The notes beneath the pieces are model-generated. The model had not been told where the DNA came from. It saw nothing but the letters and a program-made list of their open reading frames with translations, and did no database searches. This document shows, in pieces, positions 35,704 through 42,199 of a stretch of 46,154 nt of DNA (the first letter of the stretch is position 1; every line of letters begins with the position of its first letter). The translations under genes were made by a program, and so were the position numbers. Source of the stretch: Oscillospiraceae bacterium (lineage in GTDB: Bacteria; Bacillota; Clostridia; Oscillospirales; CAG-272); assembly GCA_015063525.1 (NCBI GenBank), contig SVTZ01000003.1, positions 1 to 46,154 on the forward strand, in the 5' to 3' direction.

Positions 35704-37623
35704 TTACATTACTAATTCGTATAGGCCGAGCAGCTCTTCTTCGATCTCGCTCTTTCGCGTCTCAATCTCGGCAGCTCTTATATAATCGCTTGCTGCCTCG
35801 CCGAAAAGCTCCTCCTCAAGCGACTCAAGCTCTAATTCGAGCTCTGCGATTTTCTTTTCTGCTCTTTCTCGCGCCTTTTCTTCGCTCCTCGCCTTGGCTT
35901 TCTGACGTTTTTTCTCTTCGTAGTCTGCCTTTGCATCGGTAACTGACGCCTGCTTTTTCACGCTTGCAAGCATAAGATTTCTCGTTTCTCTTATGCGCAT
36001 ATACTCGGTGAAGGCGTCGTCGTAGCTTTCAAGAGGATAATCTATCATTCCGTTGTCTCTCTCGGGCGCAAGCTCGATAATTCTCGTCGCTATTCTGTTT
36101 ATAAAATATCTGTCGTGAGACACCGCCACTATCGTGCCGTCAAAGGCAAGCAGAGCGTTTTCAAGCGCCTCACAGGAGCCGATGTCAAGATGGTTCGTCG
36201 GCTCGTCCATTACCAGAAGATTTACCTTTTTAAGTATTAGCTTCGCCAGCGTCAGCCTTGCTCTCTCACCGCCCGAAAGTGTTGAAACCGACCGCTGTAT
36301 GTCGTCCGCATCAAATAGGAACAGTGCAAGGGTTGAGCGAAGCTCAAGATCGGTCTTGTCGGGATAAGCCTCGCGAAGCTCGCCAAACACCGTGTTCGTG
36401 TCGGTAAGACCTCGGTTTTCCTGGTCGTAATATCCGATCTTTACGTTATATCCAAGAGTAATTTTTCCTCCCGTAGGTACAAGAAGCGAGTTTATCAGCT
36501 TCATCAGCGTTGATTTTCCCGTTCCGTTTGCGCCGAGAAACATCACTCTCTCATATCTTCTTATTAGGAAGGAAAGATTTTTGATAAGCTTCCTTTCGCC
36601 GTAGGAAAAGCAAAGATCCTTTGCTTCCATAACGTTTCCTGCCGATTCCTCTTCAGTGGCAAAGCGCAGGCGTATGTTCTTCTCGTCCTTCGGCGCAAGC
36701 TCGACCTTTTCCATTCTCGCAAGCTGCTTTTCCTTTGCCCTTATGGTAACGTAGTTATGCTCCTGGTTGCATCTGCGCTGGAACTCGATATTCGCCTGAA
36801 TTCTGGCGATTTCCTTCTGCTGCTCTTTGTATCTTTTTTCAAGGGACGCAGCCTCGGCCTCGCTCTGCGCCTTGCACCTCGAGTAGCTGCCGTTATACAG
36901 CCTTGCCTTGCCGTATCGAAGCCAAAGGGTCTTGTTTGTCGTTCTGTCGAGGAAATAACGGTCGTGGGAAATTATGATAACAGTTTTTTTGTAATTTGCT
37001 AGGAAGGCTTCAAGCCACGCGAGGGCATCAATATCAAGATGGTTCGTTGGCTCGTCAAGCATAAGTATGTCCGGCTCGGTTGCCAGAAGTCTCGCAAGAG
37101 CGAGACGTGTGTATTGTCCTCCTGAAAGGGTTCTTATCTTCCTTGTTATAAGCTCCTCGTCAAAGCCGAGACGAAGCAGCATTCCTCGGCATCTGGATCT
37201 AAATTCAAGTCCTCCCTCCGACGCAAAGCGGTTGTTCTGCTCGTTGAGCCTTGCAGTCAGCGAAAGAATTTCGTCTCCCGAAGCATTAGCAAGAGCCGCT
37301 TCAGTCCGTTCGATCTCCCTTTCAAGAGAGAGAAGGGCGGGGTAGGCGGTGAACATATATTCAAGGCAGGTGACCTCTCCGGGAAGGGAGCTGAGATCGG
37401 CATTCTGCTCAAGAACGCCCACAGTGTGACCCTTTTGGATATATACCGCGCCCGAATCTGGAGAATACTGTCCGGTAATTATTTTAAAAAGCGATGTCTT
37501 GCCCGCGCCGTTGACGCCGATAACGCCAAGCCTGTCGCCGTCATTTATAGCAAAGGAAATATCCTTTAATATAACGTCTGTGCCAAAAGAGAGATTGATC
37601 TCCGAGGCTGATAAAGCTATCAT
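35704..37623 (-). CDS. ABC-F family ATPase
   Basis: Two NBDs (GVNGAGKT/LSGGQ/DEPTNHLD; GANGTGKST/LSGGE/DEPTNHLD), no TM helices, coiled-coil tail. Start uncertain (37623, 37656 or 37680). Confidence 0.92.
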   Translation of the reverse strand: MIALSASEINLSFGTDVILKDISFAINDGDRLGVIGVNGAGKTSLFKIITGQYSPDSGAVYIQKGHTVGVLEQNADLSSLPGEVTCLEYMFTAYPALLSLEREIERTEAALANASGDEILSLTARLNEQNNRFASEGGLEFRSRCRGMLLRLGFDEELITRKIRTLSGGQYTRLALARLLATEPDILMLDEPTNHLDIDALAWLEAFLANYKKTVIIISHDRYFLDRTTNKTLWLRYGKARLYNGSYSRCKAQSEAEAASLEKRYKEQQKEIARIQANIEFQRRCNQEHNYVTIRAKEKQLARMEKVELAPKDEKNIRLRFATEEESAGNVMEAKDLCFSYGERKLIKNLSFLIRRYERVMFLGANGTGKSTLMKLINSLLVPTGGKITLGYNVKIGYYDQENRGLTDTNTVFGELREAYPDKTDLELRSTLALFLFDADDIQRSVSTLSGGERARLTLAKLILKKVNLLVMDEPTNHLDIGSCEALENALLAFDGTIVAVSHDRYFINRIATRIIELAPERDNGMIDYPLESYDDAFTEYMRIRETRNLMLASVKKQASVTDAKADYEEKKRQKAKARSEEKARERAEKKIAELELELESLEEELFGEAASDYIRAAEIETRKSEIEEELLGLYELVM

Positions 37624-37770
37624 TATATTATAATAACCCGGTCGGGCTCCCTTCATAATTTTGTGACACTCACCACCCAAGATATAAACAATATATCAAA
37701 TCCTGAAAGGGCGCAAATCTTCACAATACTATTTTACCACAAGACAAAGAAAAAATCAATATGCGACCAA

Positions 37771-37874
37771 AATGAATAAATATGCAGAATAAAACCTGCG
37801 TATTCGCAGAAAAATATGGTAAAAAGGAAAAAATGTCGAATAAAAATACAAAAAATATTGAATTTTTTTGCAAA
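37771..37874 (+). promoter_or_regulatory. Three ArgR/AhrC (ARG box)-like sites
   Basis: 14-bp cores TGAATAAATATGCA (37773), CGAATAAAAATACA (37837) and TGAATTTTTTTGCA (37859) versus consensus TG(A/C)ATWWWWAT(T/G)CA. Confidence 0.5.
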
Positions 37875-37880
37875 AGCCTA

Positions 37881-37909
37881 TTGACAAATGCATTTTATGG
37901 GTGTATAAT
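37881..37909 (+). promoter_or_regulatory. Sigma-A promoter of the amino-acid ABC operon
   Basis: Perfect TTGACA-17 nt-TATAAT. Confidence 0.75.
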
Positions 37910-37962
37910 AGCCACGTCAAAACAAATCGGGCACAGCCCATAACAGAAAGAAGGACAAAACA

Positions 37963-38841
37963 ATGAAAAAAATTATCTCACTTATTCTTGCACTTACAAT
38001 GCTCCTCGGCGCGACCTTCGCGCTCTCTTCCTGCAATCTTTTCGGCAGTGGGGACACCGGTAATGACGCTCTTGTGAAGGTCGTTGACGTTAAGCTTACT
38101 GACGAGCAGTATGCTTTTGTTGCAAAGAAGGATAACACCGCGCTTGTAAACGACTTCAACGCTTTCCTTGCAACTATTAAGGAAAACGGCACCTTCGACG
38201 CTCTCGTTGCGAAGTATTTTGAGGGCAAGGGAGAGAAGGTTGGCTATGACGTAACTACTACCGACGTTCAGAACAGTGATTCTAACCTTATCGTAGTAAC
38301 TAACTGCCCCTTCGAGCCTTTTGAGTACATAGGCGATGATGGCAAGATCTACGGTCTTGATATAGAAATCGCGGCAGCTTATGCTGAGTACAAGGATCTT
38401 GAACTCGTAATCAAGAACATTGGCTTTGACGATATCTTTACTCAGGTTGATGCAGGCTATGCGGATATTGGTATGGCAGGTATCACCGTAAGCGAGGATC
38501 GTGTAGCTCTTTACGACTTCACCACCACTTATTTCAATGCTTCTCAGAAGCTTATCGTTGCAGCAGACAATACCGATTTTGACAACTGCAAGACACTCGA
38601 GGACGTTGAGGCCGTTATCTCTGCCCTTGAAGGCAAAAAGATCGGCTATCAGACAGGTACGACCGGTGGTATGTATATCAACGGTGACGAGGACTGGGGA
38701 TACGTTGGCTTTGCAAACATTGAGGGCAAGGGCTATACAAGTGCTCAGGAAGCGGTTACCGATCTTGTCAACGGCAATATCTATGCTGTTGTTGTCGACG
38801 AGGCACCTGCTAATGCTATCGTTGCAGCGGTTAATAAATAA
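37963..38841 (+). CDS. Polar amino-acid ABC substrate-binding lipoprotein (family 3), apparently circularly permuted
   Basis: LSSC lipobox; PFEPFEY, GLDIEI, AGITVSEDR, GTTG, VVVDEAPA. The usual C-terminal segment is at the N-terminus. Confidence 0.9.
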   Translation: MKKIISLILALTMLLGATFALSSCNLFGSGDTGNDALVKVVDVKLTDEQYAFVAKKDNTALVNDFNAFLATIKENGTFDALVAKYFEGKGEKVGYDVTTTDVQNSDSNLIVVTNCPFEPFEYIGDDGKIYGLDIEIAAAYAEYKDLELVIKNIGFDDIFTQVDAGYADIGMAGITVSEDRVALYDFTTTYFNASQKLIVAADNTDFDNCKTLEDVEAVISALEGKKIGYQTGTTGGMYINGDEDWGYVGFANIEGKGYTSAQEAVTDLVNGNIYAVVVDEAPANAIVAAVNK

Positions 38842-38859
38842 TTAATCTACAAAACAAAT

Positions 38860-38894
38860 TAAAAGCCCCGCAGCTTCTGTTGCGGGAGCTTTTT
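38860..38894 (+). terminator. Intercistronic hairpin after the substrate-binding gene
   Basis: AAAAGCCCCGCAGC...GTTGCGGGAGCTTTT. Confidence 0.55.
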
Positions 38895-38920
38895 CGCGAA
38901 TAAGTTCAGAAAGGATAAAT

Positions 38921-39661
38921 ATGAACTGGAGTGTAAAATGGGAAAAATTCCTTTCCACAATGGAAAGCGAATACTTTAGACAGCTTCTTGTTGATGGTCT
39001 TGCCAATACTGTTAGCGTGGCGGTGCTCGGATTGCTGATAGGTATAGTTATAGGTAGCGTTATAGCCGTCGTTAAGGTGGCACCCAAATATAACTTGATA
39101 AACAGAATTCTCGATAAGATATGCAACGTATACGTTGCCATTTTTCGCGGAACTCCGATAGTGGTTCAGCTCTCGCTTGCGTACTACGTTCTTCTGCCCA
39201 GCCTTGGTGTAAAGGACGTTGACTCTCTGATCGTCGGTATAATTGTTTTCGGTATGAACAGCGGTGCTTACGTTTCGGAGATTATGCGCGGCGGTCTTAA
39301 CTCTGTTGACTCCGGACAGATGGAGGCGGGACGTGCGGTCGGCTTAAGTTATAGCACTACGATGATCAAAATAGTAATCCCGCAGGCGGTGAAAAATATC
39401 CTGCCCACACTCGGAAACGAGTTTATTACTCTTATCAAGGAAACCTCGGTGCTTAGCTTTATAACCGTTTATGACCTGTATACCGCGCTTATTGATACTA
39501 TAGGCGCTAAAAATTATGAAAAAATGGTGCCTTACCTGGTGCTTGCTATGATTTATATCGTTCTCGTTCTTCTTATCACTCTTCTTGTAAAGGTGTTAGA
39601 GAACATTTTTGCAAAGAGCGATAAAAAAAGAACGCAACCGAGAAAGGCAAAGGCGGTGTAA
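38921..39661 (+). CDS. Polar amino-acid ABC permease (HisM/GlnP type)
   Basis: FRGTPIVVQL, SGAYVSEIMRGG, GQMEAG, NEFITLIKETS. Confidence 0.95.
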   Translation: MNWSVKWEKFLSTMESEYFRQLLVDGLANTVSVAVLGLLIGIVIGSVIAVVKVAPKYNLINRILDKICNVYVAIFRGTPIVVQLSLAYYVLLPSLGVKDVDSLIVGIIVFGMNSGAYVSEIMRGGLNSVDSGQMEAGRAVGLSYSTTMIKIVIPQAVKNILPTLGNEFITLIKETSVLSFITVYDLYTALIDTIGAKNYEKMVPYLVLAMIYIVLVLLITLLVKVLENIFAKSDKKRTQPRKAKAV

Positions 39662-39664
39662 ATA

Positions 39665-40486
39665 ATGGTAGAAAAGAATGTAATTATTAAGGTAGAGGGG
39701 CTTGAAAAGACCTTTGAGGATGGAAAAACCGTGTTAAACGGTATTGATCTTGTGGTCAATCAGGGTGAGAAGGTGGTTATCCTCGGTGCATCCGGATCGG
39801 GCAAATCAACCTTGCTAAGATGCCTTAATTGTATGGAGGATCCTACGGGCGGATCTATATTCTTTGATGGCGTTGACCTTGCCGATATGAGCGTTGATAT
39901 TAACGTTCGCCGTGAGCATATCGGTATGGTTTTCCAGCAGTTCAACCTCTTTAACAACAAGACCGTAATTGAAAATATTATGCTTGCGCCTGTGCACATC
40001 GCTTTCAGAAATATGCGCAAGGAGAAGATAAAGCGTTTCTTCGACAAGATCGATGAAAACGCCGAGCCTCTTAAGAGCAAAAAGGAAATAATTGCTGAGA
40101 AGAAGGCTCACGCTATGGAGCTTCTTCGTCGCATAGGTCTTGAGGAGAAGGCAAACGTTTATCCCTCAACTCTTTCAGGCGGACAGAAGCAGAGAATTGC
40201 TATTGTTCGTGCCCTTGCAATGAATCCTGACGTTATGCTCTTTGACGAGCCTACGTCGGCGCTCGACCCTGAGATGGTAGGCGAGGTACTCGACCTTATG
40301 AAGCAGCTTGCCGCCGAGGGAATGACTATGGTAATCGTAACTCACGAGATGGGATTTGCCCGCGAGGTGGCAGACAAGATCATCTTTATCGACGAGGGCA
40401 AAATCAAGGAGGAGGGAACTCCCGGTGAGGTCTTTGGCAACCCCAAAGATGCAAGACTTAAGGATTTTCTCTCGAAGGTACTTTAA
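39665..40486 (+). CDS. Polar amino-acid ABC ATPase (GlnQ type)
   Basis: [43 protein letters not shown]. Confidence 0.95.
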
Positions 40487-40488
40487 TA

Positions 40489-40521
40489 AAATTCTCCGCA
40501 CCCGAAAGAGTGCGGAGTTTT
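40489..40521. terminator. Bidirectional terminator
   Basis: CTCCGCAC-ccgaaaga-GTGCGGAG followed by TTTT. Confidence 0.65.
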
Positions 40522-40522
40522 C

Positions 40523-42199
40523 TTATATTCTTGCTTTAATCATAGAGTTGATTCGTTCTCTGACGCGAAGCATCTCGTCAGCCGAGTGGGCGCATCTATC
40601 AAAGGTTAGCTCACAGCCAAGCTCTTCCTCAATTGCCGCCACTACCTCTTCCTTTGAGTAAAGGCTCTCGCACAGGCGCATAGCGCTAATATCCTCTATA
40701 GCGTCGTGAAATACCATTGTGCGCAGCGACTCAAGCGCTGAGCCGTCACGTGCGGGGTAGACCGAGAAAGCGTCACCTGCCGAAACCCAGGCATCACCGC
40801 CCTGCTCAACGTAAGGATTGATGCAGTCTACCGAGTGCTCATTTTTGTAGAAATTGAAGCCCCAGTGTAGGAAACCGACGATGTCGTACTTATACATCTG
40901 CATACCTATGGAGCGATTTCTCCAAGACGGCATAGCGATAAAGCGGTTTGAAACCTTAACTCTCTGCCCACCGCAGTAGTAGGCCCAAAGTCCCTTGACA
41001 CCTCCGTCGATAAAGCTCTGGATGTGATCGCTTGCAGGGATAGGCGTCTTAACCACACCCTTTTTATAAAACTCGTAGCTCGAAAGCGCGTCCATAATAA
41101 CGTAATTTTTGAGCAGTCCCTCAACTATTTTCTTTGACCTTTTGTAGTCCTCGAGTTGCTCCTTGCTCGGCTCGTCGGACACGTGGAAGTAGCAACGGTG
41201 GTCGTCTCCACGCTTTTTCATATAATTAAGGAAGGATTTGATAAAGGAGTGGAGGAATTTCTTGTACTCCTCGCCGTGCGCGTCGGTATCCCAGCCGAAA
41301 ATTCGCTTGTACTCGCCGTCAACTGTTGCCATAATCTTCGGCGCGTGCGTAGCACCCCACTGCGTGAAGAAGTGTGAAATTTCAAAATACTTGATTCCCA
41401 CTCTGTCGCACATAGCTATCCATCTGTCAAGCAATTTATAATCAAAGGTATAGCGTCTGCCCGTCTTCTTAACCCCGACGAGCTGCGTCGTGAGTCTCTC
41501 TCCGCCGATTTTCGTATCAAGGGGTGGCGTGAAAACGGGGGTTAATAGCATATTTATGCCCGTCTTTTTTGCGGTGCGAGCGAAATTCTCAATAATCTCC
41601 CAGTGCCTATCTGACCACACGGGAACGTTATAGTATTCAGCTAGGCAGTCGCAGTATAGCCACTGTGTGAAAATAAGCCTCTGCTCGGGTAGGCTCGCGT
41701 CGATTACCTCAATGTTTACCGAGTCGCTGGCAAGAGCCTTTCCGCTTTCCTCTTCGTAAAGGGTTATGTCGAGGCTGTTTGTTCCGCACTTTGCATCAGC
41801 GGGCACCGAAATCTCTAGCCACACGCTGGTCGGAACGTTTTCCGTAGCAGGATTTCCAATAACTATTTTACCGCCGTAACGTAGTGGCTCGAGCAGGTCG
41901 GGATAGAGCCCCGGCGTGGTACGCAGATACTGCTCGTCATGGAAGAATTTTTCGGCAGGATAGGATACGGGAATGTCGCTGACCTTGTATAGCGTCACGT
42001 ATTCCGAAAGTGTGCCCGAGATTTTAGGCGTAAGTCTGCGTCTTTTTGGCTCGTCATACTTGTTTTCATATGCCACGAGCAGCTGCATACGTATGAGCTC
42101 GCCCTTAAGTGCCGATATGTAGGAGAGCCTGTCAAAGTCCTCTATTCTCTGGTCAGAGAACACCTTTTCTAAAGAAGAAATTATTTTGGTTTTTAACAT
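40523..42199 (-). CDS. DUF4091/GH123-like glycoside hydrolase
   Basis: HFFTQWG, HVSDEP, WAYYC, GFLHWGFN, GDAFSVYP, ESLR; no signal peptide. Confidence 0.7.
   Translation of the reverse strand: MLKTKIISSLEKVFSDQRIEDFDRLSYISALKGELIRMQLLVAYENKYDEPKRRRLTPKISGTLSEYVTLYKVSDIPVSYPAEKFFHDEQYLRTTPGLYPDLLEPLRYGGKIVIGNPATENVPTSVWLEISVPADAKCGTNSLDITLYEEESGKALASDSVNIEVIDASLPEQRLIFTQWLYCDCLAEYYNVPVWSDRHWEIIENFARTAKKTGINMLLTPVFTPPLDTKIGGERLTTQLVGVKKTGRRYTFDYKLLDRWIAMCDRVGIKYFEISHFFTQWGATHAPKIMATVDGEYKRIFGWDTDAHGEEYKKFLHSFIKSFLNYMKKRGDDHRCYFHVSDEPSKEQLEDYKRSKKIVEGLLKNYVIMDALSSYEFYKKGVVKTPIPASDHIQSFIDGGVKGLWAYYCGGQRVKVSNRFIAMPSWRNRSIGMQMYKYDIVGFLHWGFNFYKNEHSVDCINPYVEQGGDAWVSAGDAFSVYPARDGSALESLRTMVFHDAIEDISAMRLCESLYSKEEVVAAIEEELGCELTFDRCAHSADEMLRVRERINSMIKARI

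Follow-up and report, generated by a model that had tools for sequence, protein, structure and literature searches.

An apparently functional, naturally circularly permuted family-3 binding protein in an amino-acid-type ABC importer operon of an Oscillospiraceae bacterium

The window analysed in this study is a stretch of 46,154 nucleotides from an Oscillospiraceae bacterium (assembly GCA_015063525.1, contig SVTZ01000003.1); its features lie on the forward strand unless stated otherwise. The gene in question (37963..38841) is an intact open reading frame (ORF) of 292 codons plus stop and encodes a lipoprotein of the SBP_bac_3 family, a family-3 substrate-binding protein (SBP), with the parts of the family in permuted order. 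Upstream, a sigma-70-like promoter TTGACA-17-TATAAT (37881..37909) agrees by pattern match with 12 of 12 consensus positions, in line with the strong promoter called in a first-pass annotation of the window, and a Shine-Dalgarno-like GAAGGA (37950..37955) can be read 7 nt 5' of the ATG. The genes of a binding-protein-dependent ATP-binding cassette (ABC) importer permease (38921..39661; 246 aa; BPD_transp_1, 95.5 bits) and of an importer ATPase (39665..40486; 273 aa; ABC_tran, 126.2 bits) follow directly downstream, as that annotation had also reported.

The encoded chain begins with a lipoprotein signal peptide (residues 1-24, 37963..38034) ending in the lipobox L-S-S-C, with Cys24 as the predicted lipidation site. 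A flexible tether of 12 residues (25-36, 38035..38070), variable and of low model confidence, leads from the anchor to the fold. There follows the relocated block (residues 37-88, 38071..38226), consisting of two strands and two helices, which corresponds to the canonical C-terminal part of lobe 1. The linker (residues 89-107, start at 87 or 89; 38227..38283) joins the old C-terminus to the old N-terminus, and its first part corresponds to the tail of P0122, a relative of canonical order. The canonical N-terminal part of lobe 1 (residues 108-193, 38284..38541), placed by alignments to solved proteins, carries Thr175 and Arg180 and ends in the sole remaining crossover between the lobes. Lobe 2 (residues 194-292, 38542..38838) carries Thr234 and Asp279 and is contiguous up to the C-terminus, 10 residues after the motif VVVDEAPA. 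Among homologues the tether varies in length and sequence, and the length of the linker is conserved. Cys24 is invariant in both alignments of proteins with the window order (class A), including 41 sequences down to 33% identity, and a permissive lipobox pattern was found in 120 of 120 homologues among the matches listed. The Pfam model LPAM_1 stayed below its cut-off (13.6 bits versus 20). Signal peptide, lipobox and invariant cysteine together predict a bacterial lipoprotein.

The swapped order was found with several independent comparisons. Pfam SBP_bac_3 (PF00497) recognised the protein with 100.5 bits (cut-off 26.4, E 8.2e-29) in two stretches; two hits in swapped order had been expected of a profile search in the first-pass annotation. 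When the genome of the window was searched with the family profile, DNA 38287-38607 matched profile positions 1-109, and the upstream DNA 37780-38223 matched positions 97-131. In the solved chain 4zv1, query residues 109-287 aligned to residues 12-175 and query residues 35-86 to residues 180-231; the alignment to 6svf repeated this pattern. The cut thus falls between positions about 175 and 180 of 4zv1, corresponding to h197/198 of a hidden Markov model (HMM) built from 19 canonical relatives (252 positions, numbered h1-h252). On this model residues 36-88 of the window protein cover h198-250 and residues 103-291 cover h10-197, each part once.

P0122 (P numbers denote protein representatives, L numbers genome loci) provided the closest view of both pieces. 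Its body corresponds to the window protein with 68% identity (106-289 to 35-218, E 9e-89), and its C-terminus matches the moved block and the start of the linker, also with 68% identity (38-99 to 222-283, E 3e-23, BLASTP). With this identity and E value the block match is not due to chance. Homology to the C-terminal tail of P0122 extends over the first part of the linker.

No chain collinear over residues 35-292 was found in the Protein Data Bank (PDB) sets searched, neither by sequence search (93 matches), nor with Foldseek, nor with VIA-align (best 50 of 48,161 representatives); a canonical full-length collinear chain, which the first-pass annotation had named as counter-evidence, was not found there. 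The GlnP tandem 6h30 is collinear across the junction between the end of its first and the start of its second substrate-binding domain (SBD1 and SBD2; query 49-281 to chain 186-395). A protein search returned 1581 proteins at E <= 1e-5, and 120 of 120 among the matches listed were of class A with lipobox. The order claimed in the first-pass annotation, with the terminal block after the lipobox, a linker of about 22 residues (19-22 found), the normal start and an end after VVVDEAPA, was therefore recovered by profile, by the 4zv1 and 6svf alignments, by the canonical HMM and by P0122, and its statements on single parts and an intact ORF agree with the HMM and the 292-aa frame. Canonical chain order, with both termini on lobe 1 and two crossovers between the lobes, does not apply to this protein. 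Together with the predicted fold, the bridging contigs and the selection data given below, these sequence comparisons support a genuine, conserved and apparently functional circular permutant of a family-3 binding protein.

An AlphaFold2 model was computed on the alignment of 41 class A sequences. It reached a mean predicted local distance difference test (pLDDT) of 93.1 and a predicted template modelling score (pTM) of 0.82; pLDDT was 97-98 in the block and 93-96 in the linker, and values below 50 occurred only at residues 28-32. With VIA-align, model residues 105-292 matched liganded amino-acid-binding proteins (positions ~1-175) at Z 15-17.4 and a root mean square deviation (rmsd) of 1.6-1.8 over ~170 residues. 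Foldseek gave a probability of 1.00, with rmsd of 2.0-2.6 to holo forms and 5.9-7.8 to apo forms. Since holo forms fit better than apo forms, the model represents a closed state. Model, VIA-align and Foldseek agree on a two-lobed type II binding fold; sequential aligners map only the body of a permuted model.

The structure 6gpm, the isolated domain 2 of TmArgBP, aligned to model residues 194-291 (Z 11.1, rmsd 1.4 over 80 residues). Hence, the chain ends exactly at the end of lobe 2. Each lobe is encoded by one contiguous stretch (lobe 1 about residues 37-193, lobe 2 194-292), and a single covalent crossover connects the lobes where canonical proteins have two. The N-terminus is found at the hinge end of lobe 1, the C-terminus on lobe 2. 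The first-pass annotation had proposed that the permutation moves the lipid anchor to the other lobe. This was not confirmed. The relocated block belongs to lobe 1, as does the canonical N-terminus, and the anchor moves to the hinge-proximal end of lobe 1. As 6gpm aligns to residues 194-291 and both termini of native LAO-BP-type proteins lie on the N-terminal domain (PMC5087393, in the portion of the text available), it is the C-terminus and not the anchor that changes lobe.

We assign a probability of about 0.88 to the reading that the gene product is a working, lipid-anchored SBP of a three-gene importer of the polar-amino-acid type and a natural circular permutant. According to this reading, which draws on sequence comparison and the model, the predicted lipidated Cys24 and the 12-residue tether are followed by the segment that normally closes the protein, i.e. 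the last part of lobe 1. A linker of 19-22 residues, in which the former C-terminal tail and N-terminal leader are combined, then leads to the canonical N-terminal part of lobe 1, the first hinge strand and lobe 2, and the chain stops exactly where the second hinge connection would begin. The cleft would be built from three pieces, with Glu48 and Tyr50 from the moved block, Thr175 and Arg180 from lobe 1 and Thr234 and Asp279 from lobe 2. An alpha-amino acid would be bound by Venus-flytrap closure and handed to the permease and ATPase encoded downstream. Glu48, Tyr50 and Asp279 are invariant in the 41 class A sequences down to 33% identity, and Thr175, Arg180 and Thr234 are conserved there to at least 90%; Thr175, Arg180 and Asp279 align to the matching motifs of 4zv1 and 6svf. 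Thus, the positions typical of alpha-amino-acid binding in GlnBP and LAO, a Ser/Thr and an Arg of lobe 1 and an Asp of lobe 2, are kept.

Some points weigh against this reading. We infer the canonical placement of the block from its sequence homology, its agreement in secondary structure and the confidence of the AlphaFold2 model. The Thr/Arg pair and the Asp are taken by us, after the GlnBP and LAO structures, to bind the carboxylate and amino groups of the ligand. Likewise, we assume from GlnBP and LAO that the C-terminal block contributes its Tyr to the wall of the pocket, and it is on this assumption that the moved block would still supply a pocket residue. No NCBIfam equivalog cut-off was reached: the best model, TIGR01096, scored 99.8 bits versus 256.35, the GlnH equivalog 74 versus 303 and the ArtJ equivalog 60.9 versus 510. 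Because collinear models are penalised by the permutation, these misses assign no substrate either way. The ratios of nonsynonymous to synonymous substitution rates (dN/dS), calculated pairwise against 15 orthologues as medians over the pairs with defined dS, were 0.15 for the moved block (8 of 15 pairs), 0.24 for the linker (7 of 15), 0.06 for the body (5 of 15) and 0.81 for the tether (residues 25-36; 3 of 15); with dS saturated in most pairs and 3-8 of 15 pairs contributing, these values are rough. Judged by them, the moved block is under purifying selection. Finally, the engineered permutant cpLAO-BP, in a fusion for Förster resonance energy transfer (FRET), bound lysine ~36-fold more weakly than the native protein (PMC5087393, available portion). 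Hence, the window protein may also pay a cost in affinity.

Since the genome is metagenome-derived, fragmented (111 contigs) and 76.5% complete, and repeated binding domains can confuse assemblers, a local misassembly could in principle have produced the order. Logan contigs from four studies (X1, X2, X4 and X6) were compared with window positions 37800-39100. The junction of signal peptide and block was bridged by contigs of X2, X4 and X6, the passage from block through linker to body by contigs of X2 (38204-38456) and X4 (37980-38425), and the end of the body with stop codon and permease start by a contig of X4 (38674-39100). These contigs from three other studies differed from the window at 0-2 positions; the contig of X1, which may be the source sample of the window, covered 37963-39100. 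Four joints seen in contigs (sides of 21-34 letters, 90% likeness) were read as pieces from related organisms and left unused. As every junction is bridged by other studies, the order is not an assembly error, which was the second counter-evidence named in the first-pass annotation. It is also repeated in 36 locus ORFs from many metagenome-assembled genomes (MAGs) and common to all 120 protein clusters among the matches listed, so that the chance of misassembly is negligible. The gene could further be a decaying, non-binding remnant of a tandem two-domain gene, composed of the end of domain 1 and most of domain 2. The collinear alignment across the 6h30 junction and the existence of tandem relatives fit such an origin, but the chain contains the complete fold a single time, with h10-250 covered once, and the start after the lipobox and the identical end recur in 120 of 120 homologues among the matches listed. 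Block and body are under purifying selection, the binding residues persist down to 33% identity, the model is a confident compact fold and 10 genomes of the genus, verified by ORF, retain the operon. We therefore consider a remnant very unlikely. Conservation, purifying selection, the predicted fold and the bridging contigs speak for the functional permutation proposed in the first-pass annotation.

Another explanation concerns the state in which a functional chain folds. In the related TmArgBP, subunits exchange their C-terminal helices; among the matched structures, the titles name only truncated and mutant forms of this protein. With one covalent hinge connection lost and the block attached by a linker, the window protein might reach its fold only by domain swapping, in a dimer or oligomer where lobe 1 of each chain is completed by the N-terminal block of a neighbour. 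The functional unit would then differ from the modelled monomer. The monomer was modelled with pTM 0.82 and with high confidence in block (97-98) and linker (93-96), though, and a linker of 19-22 residues and conserved length can connect the termini within one chain, which makes obligate swapping improbable. A role as sensor or adhesin-type binding module, and not as receptor of the adjacent importer, was also considered, as family-3 domains occur in sensor kinases and MltF (matches 3h7m, 5aa1 and BvgS) and in the relative P0213 fn3 repeats precede a class A domain, without a permease part. This has little probability for a gene directly upstream of permease and ATPase genes, in an arrangement kept across genomes, whose domain and permease form one polypeptide in 7 loci.

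To survey the orders among relatives, the 150 best representatives at 50% identity were taken. Single-domain proteins were kept (77), and 73 rows consisting of long arrays and of fragments with < 215 or > 262 HMM positions covered were left out. Together with the window protein and 23 genome loci this gave a census of 101 rows. Class A, cut in the hinge at h197/198, accounted for 52 rows, the canonical order without cut (class B) for 33 and class C, cut inside lobe 2 at h125-131, for 12; two rows were cut at h31-33 (class E), one at h69/71 (class D), and one order was unclassified. A lipobox was present in all listed representatives of classes A to E. A search for full-length homologues of the same order had been suggested in the first-pass annotation, and the 120 mentioned above share it; in a second sub-clade, 118 of 119 relatives belonged to class A. 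Of the locus ORFs that were classified (66), 36 were likewise class A; they stem from MAGs of gut and rumen origin with the labels Clostridia, Eubacteriales, Lachnospiraceae, Christensenellaceae and Bacilli. Locus L044 holds a class A gene of 47% identity on a contig labelled Candidatus Avigastranaerophilus, outside Bacillota, which could be due to transfer or to a binning error.

The rarer orders D and E are weakly supported. Their members are single-domain-length lipoproteins with exactly complementary start and end, and for neither class was a full-length match found in 401 genomes of the order. Class E (P0136 and P0257) comprises three sequences in two clusters, one of them from an NCBI MAG, and is real-looking but rare. 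Class D (P0236) is unconfirmed, with one sequence on one 2650-nt contig; in a search with P0236 only the query covered the full length among the matches listed (120 of 1181). The nearest relatives of L045/L046 and P0122 (class B), P0126 (C), P0136 (E) and P0236 (D) are class A proteins, to which they are 53-70% identical in two swapped segments.

All 25 of 25 genomes of the window's genus contained a match. By ORF, 10 genomes were of class A (one fused to the permease), with an eleventh assigned by coordinates only; 5 were of class C and 7 canonical, and 2 were not fetched. Class C genes of the genus were found in L007 (5925-6797), L008 (5916-6743), L009, L010 and L023, and elsewhere in L018 and L060. 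After the lipobox the class C chain begins midway through lobe 2, at h125-131, and its end falls at h125-129; an AlphaFold2 model of one such protein from the genus, based on 12 sequences, gave pLDDT 89.4 and pTM 0.82. ABC-F and/or RluD neighbours flank loci of class A (window, L004, L020), class C (L008, L010, L023) and canonical order (L013, L014, L017). Three orders thus occur at one ABC-F / SBP-permease-ATPase / RluD locus in one genus. The genome of the window has a second family-3 gene (G000:C80:13728-14387), which is of canonical order (profile positions 4-130 in one piece).

The neighbours of the operon in the window encode RibF, an ABC-F ATPase, a GH123 glycosidase and a RluD-type synthase. 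The GH123 gene (40523-42199, reverse strand, 365.8 bits) stands between the ATPase and RluD genes. In L008, L017 and L023 the RluD gene comes directly after the ATPase gene, and the GH123 gene therefore looks like an insertion in the lineage of the window. A terminator-like hairpin with T-run (38867..38896) occupies part of the 79-nt gap between the SBP and permease genes; the hairpin itself (38867-38886) has an 8-pair stem with 6 G-C pairs and is followed by AGCTTTTTCG. It is a possible attenuator, judged from its pattern, and may yield more binding protein than membrane components. At the end of the operon lies a hairpin that is terminator-like on both strands (40494..40517). An Rfam scan of 37400-39000 (E <= 1) gave only three sub-threshold chance matches, with no riboswitch or T-box from which the substrate might be guessed.

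The history of the orders was examined with two trees. In a quick tree of the re-ordered sequences, supported only by the Shimodaira-Hasegawa-like approximate likelihood ratio test (SH-aLRT), the orders were intermixed, and its starred branches require a minimum of 10 changes for class A, of 9 for class B and of 4 for class C. The 11-row clade of the window (support 99) contained nine A, one C and one B. In the independent permease tree of 60 rows, class C formed one clade (support 95). With groups named after seeing this tree, the approximately unbiased (AU) test rejected a split of all permuted versus all canonical loci (delta lnL, the log-likelihood difference, 75.8; p-AU 1.6e-5) and also class A alone as one clade (p-AU 1.3e-5). 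A class A clade including the canonical pair L045/L046 and the trio L021/L022/L061 was not rejected (p-AU 0.34). Nesting of L045/L046 within class A is supported by these data. For the class A trio, which lies apart, a separate origin was considered and not accepted, as its joining the main clade was not rejected.

The relatives include forms that would be expected on the way. P0164, P0188 and P0239 are full tandems, and P0235 (387 aa) is a 1.5-domain form with signal peptide, then h117-250, then h9-237, and looks like a tandem trimmed at one end only. Together with the homology between linker and canonical tail, these proteins fit a history in which binding domains were duplicated or fused head to tail and then trimmed at either end, and the origin suggested in the first-pass annotation, trimming of a tandem ancestor, agrees with P0122, the tandems and P0235. 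The same process may have run repeatedly in this lineage and produced the other orders. Canonical, A, C and rarer lobe 1-cut orders all occur among relatives of 45-70% identity. We lean slightly towards regarding this family-3 clade of gut Clostridia as a natural hot-spot of circular permutation, in which the same transporter gene has been re-cut via tandem or array intermediates.

Fusion to the permease was frequent. Class A domain and permease share one ORF in 7 of 36 class A locus ORFs (L004, L030, L032, L035, L038, L039 and L040), with lengths of 515-537 aa; L004 (760-2352, reverse strand) belongs to the window's own genus. By sequence, these ORFs represent a fusion, or conversely a fission, of the first two genes found in the window. 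Furthermore, 59 long relatives (440 aa or more) were sorted by register. In 36 of them, permease fusions with 4-8 HMM segments, the arrays start at >= h105 and end at <= h140, a class C-like register that implies 3-7 class C-type units per chain. The arrays of P0124, P0138, P0151 and 33 others start part-way through a domain after the signal peptide and end part-way before the membrane part. The class A form of the window is in a different register. The other long relatives were 4 canonical arrays, 4 single class A fusions, 3 ambiguous cases and 12 proteins without permease part. In P0207 (716 aa) a class C family-3 domain precedes a PnrA/Bmp-like binding domain, and P0213, with its fn3 repeats and class A domain, has 553 aa.

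Canonical SBP_bac_3 proteins of type II or cluster F (GlnH, ArtJ, LAO/HisJ, TmArgBP, GlnP SBD1/SBD2 and AncQR) share family, fold and operon partners with the window protein. In contrast to them, its chain starts at h198 and ends at h197, its lobes are contiguous and joined by one crossover and not two, and its C-terminus is on lobe 2. GlnPQ-type importers (6h30) combine the same domain and permease family, with tandem domains fused to the permease; canonical fusions of this kind were found among the relatives (P0132, P0147, P0180 and P0204). The binding domains of GlnPQ keep the canonical order and run into the membrane domain from lobe 1, whereas the class A fusions (P0139, P0143, P0173 and P0214 as well as the 7 loci) and the 36 arrays in class C register enter it from lobe 2.

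The design of cpLAO-BP reportedly follows Okada et al. 2009. It is of type II, cluster F and cut at the hinge like the window protein: one of the two inter-domain connections was removed, the old termini were linked and the new termini lie one per lobe, and its dissociation constant for lysine in the FRET fusion was 107 uM versus 3 uM for the native protein (PMC5087393, as far as the available portion reports). The window protein likewise has one connection opened, the old termini linked and the new termini on different lobes. cpLAO-BP is man-made, has a (GGS)4 linker and is embedded in FRET fusions, whereas the window protein is natural, has a linker recycled from tail and leader, is predicted to be lipid-anchored and would serve a transporter. 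The relevance for biosensor design stated in the first-pass annotation is apt, as engineers built the same kind of design in cpLAO-BP (PMC5087393, same portion).

Natural permutation is already in print for other binding-protein families, and the window protein is a further variant. TpMglB-2 (Tp0684) of Treponema pallidum is a natural permuted binding protein described as 'Type Ic / Cluster Bc', with homologues in Gram-positive gut bacteria, and tethering is raised by the authors as a possible reason (PMC4990184, in the part accessible). It has a type I, cluster B sugar-binding fold and gains a fourth crossover, whereas the window protein is of type II and lost one; accordingly, it does not belong to 'Type Ic / Cluster Bc', and the resemblance is one of principle only. 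The permuted part of TpMglB-2 has poor similarity to canonical relatives (same part of PMC4990184), in contrast to the 68% identity of both pieces of the window protein to a canonical relative. With CPSARST, permutation relations were reported among glycine-betaine-binding proteins (2B4L versus 1R9L/1SW1), molybdate-binding proteins and CysB (PMC2395249, excerpt). These are likewise natural permutations within the type II periplasmic-binding fold, but according to that excerpt they are deep, visible by structure only, < 24% identical and spread over functionally different groups. In the window family, permuted and canonical forms are close relatives that share one locus within a genus, with intermediates on record. 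No report of natural permutation in amino-acid family-3 proteins was found in the literature searched, which was thin on subscription journals.

ABC importers owe their specificity and rate to their binding proteins, and hinge connectivity and the point of tethering are thought to shape the dynamics of closing and the docking to the membrane domain. The class A topology, with contiguous lobes, a single covalent hinge and, in fusions, entry into the membrane from lobe 2, had no collinear match in the PDB sets searched. Since equivalog cut-offs were missed, collinear family models undercall or mis-score permuted proteins of this kind. Class A is a large natural family with only one of two hinge connections left uncut and with lobes that are contiguous units, and ready controls exist in canonical relatives at 68% identity, in a second permuted order at the same locus of sister species and in fused and unfused forms. 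This makes testable what the second hinge strand contributes to affinity and kinetics, whether it matters by which lobe a binding domain is tethered to its transporter, and by which steps circular permutations arise. For permuted amino-acid sensor scaffolds, the family provides linkers and cut sites that were optimised naturally. Should closing dynamics or docking vary with the order, the experiment that sensor engineers do by hand has already been run in nature.

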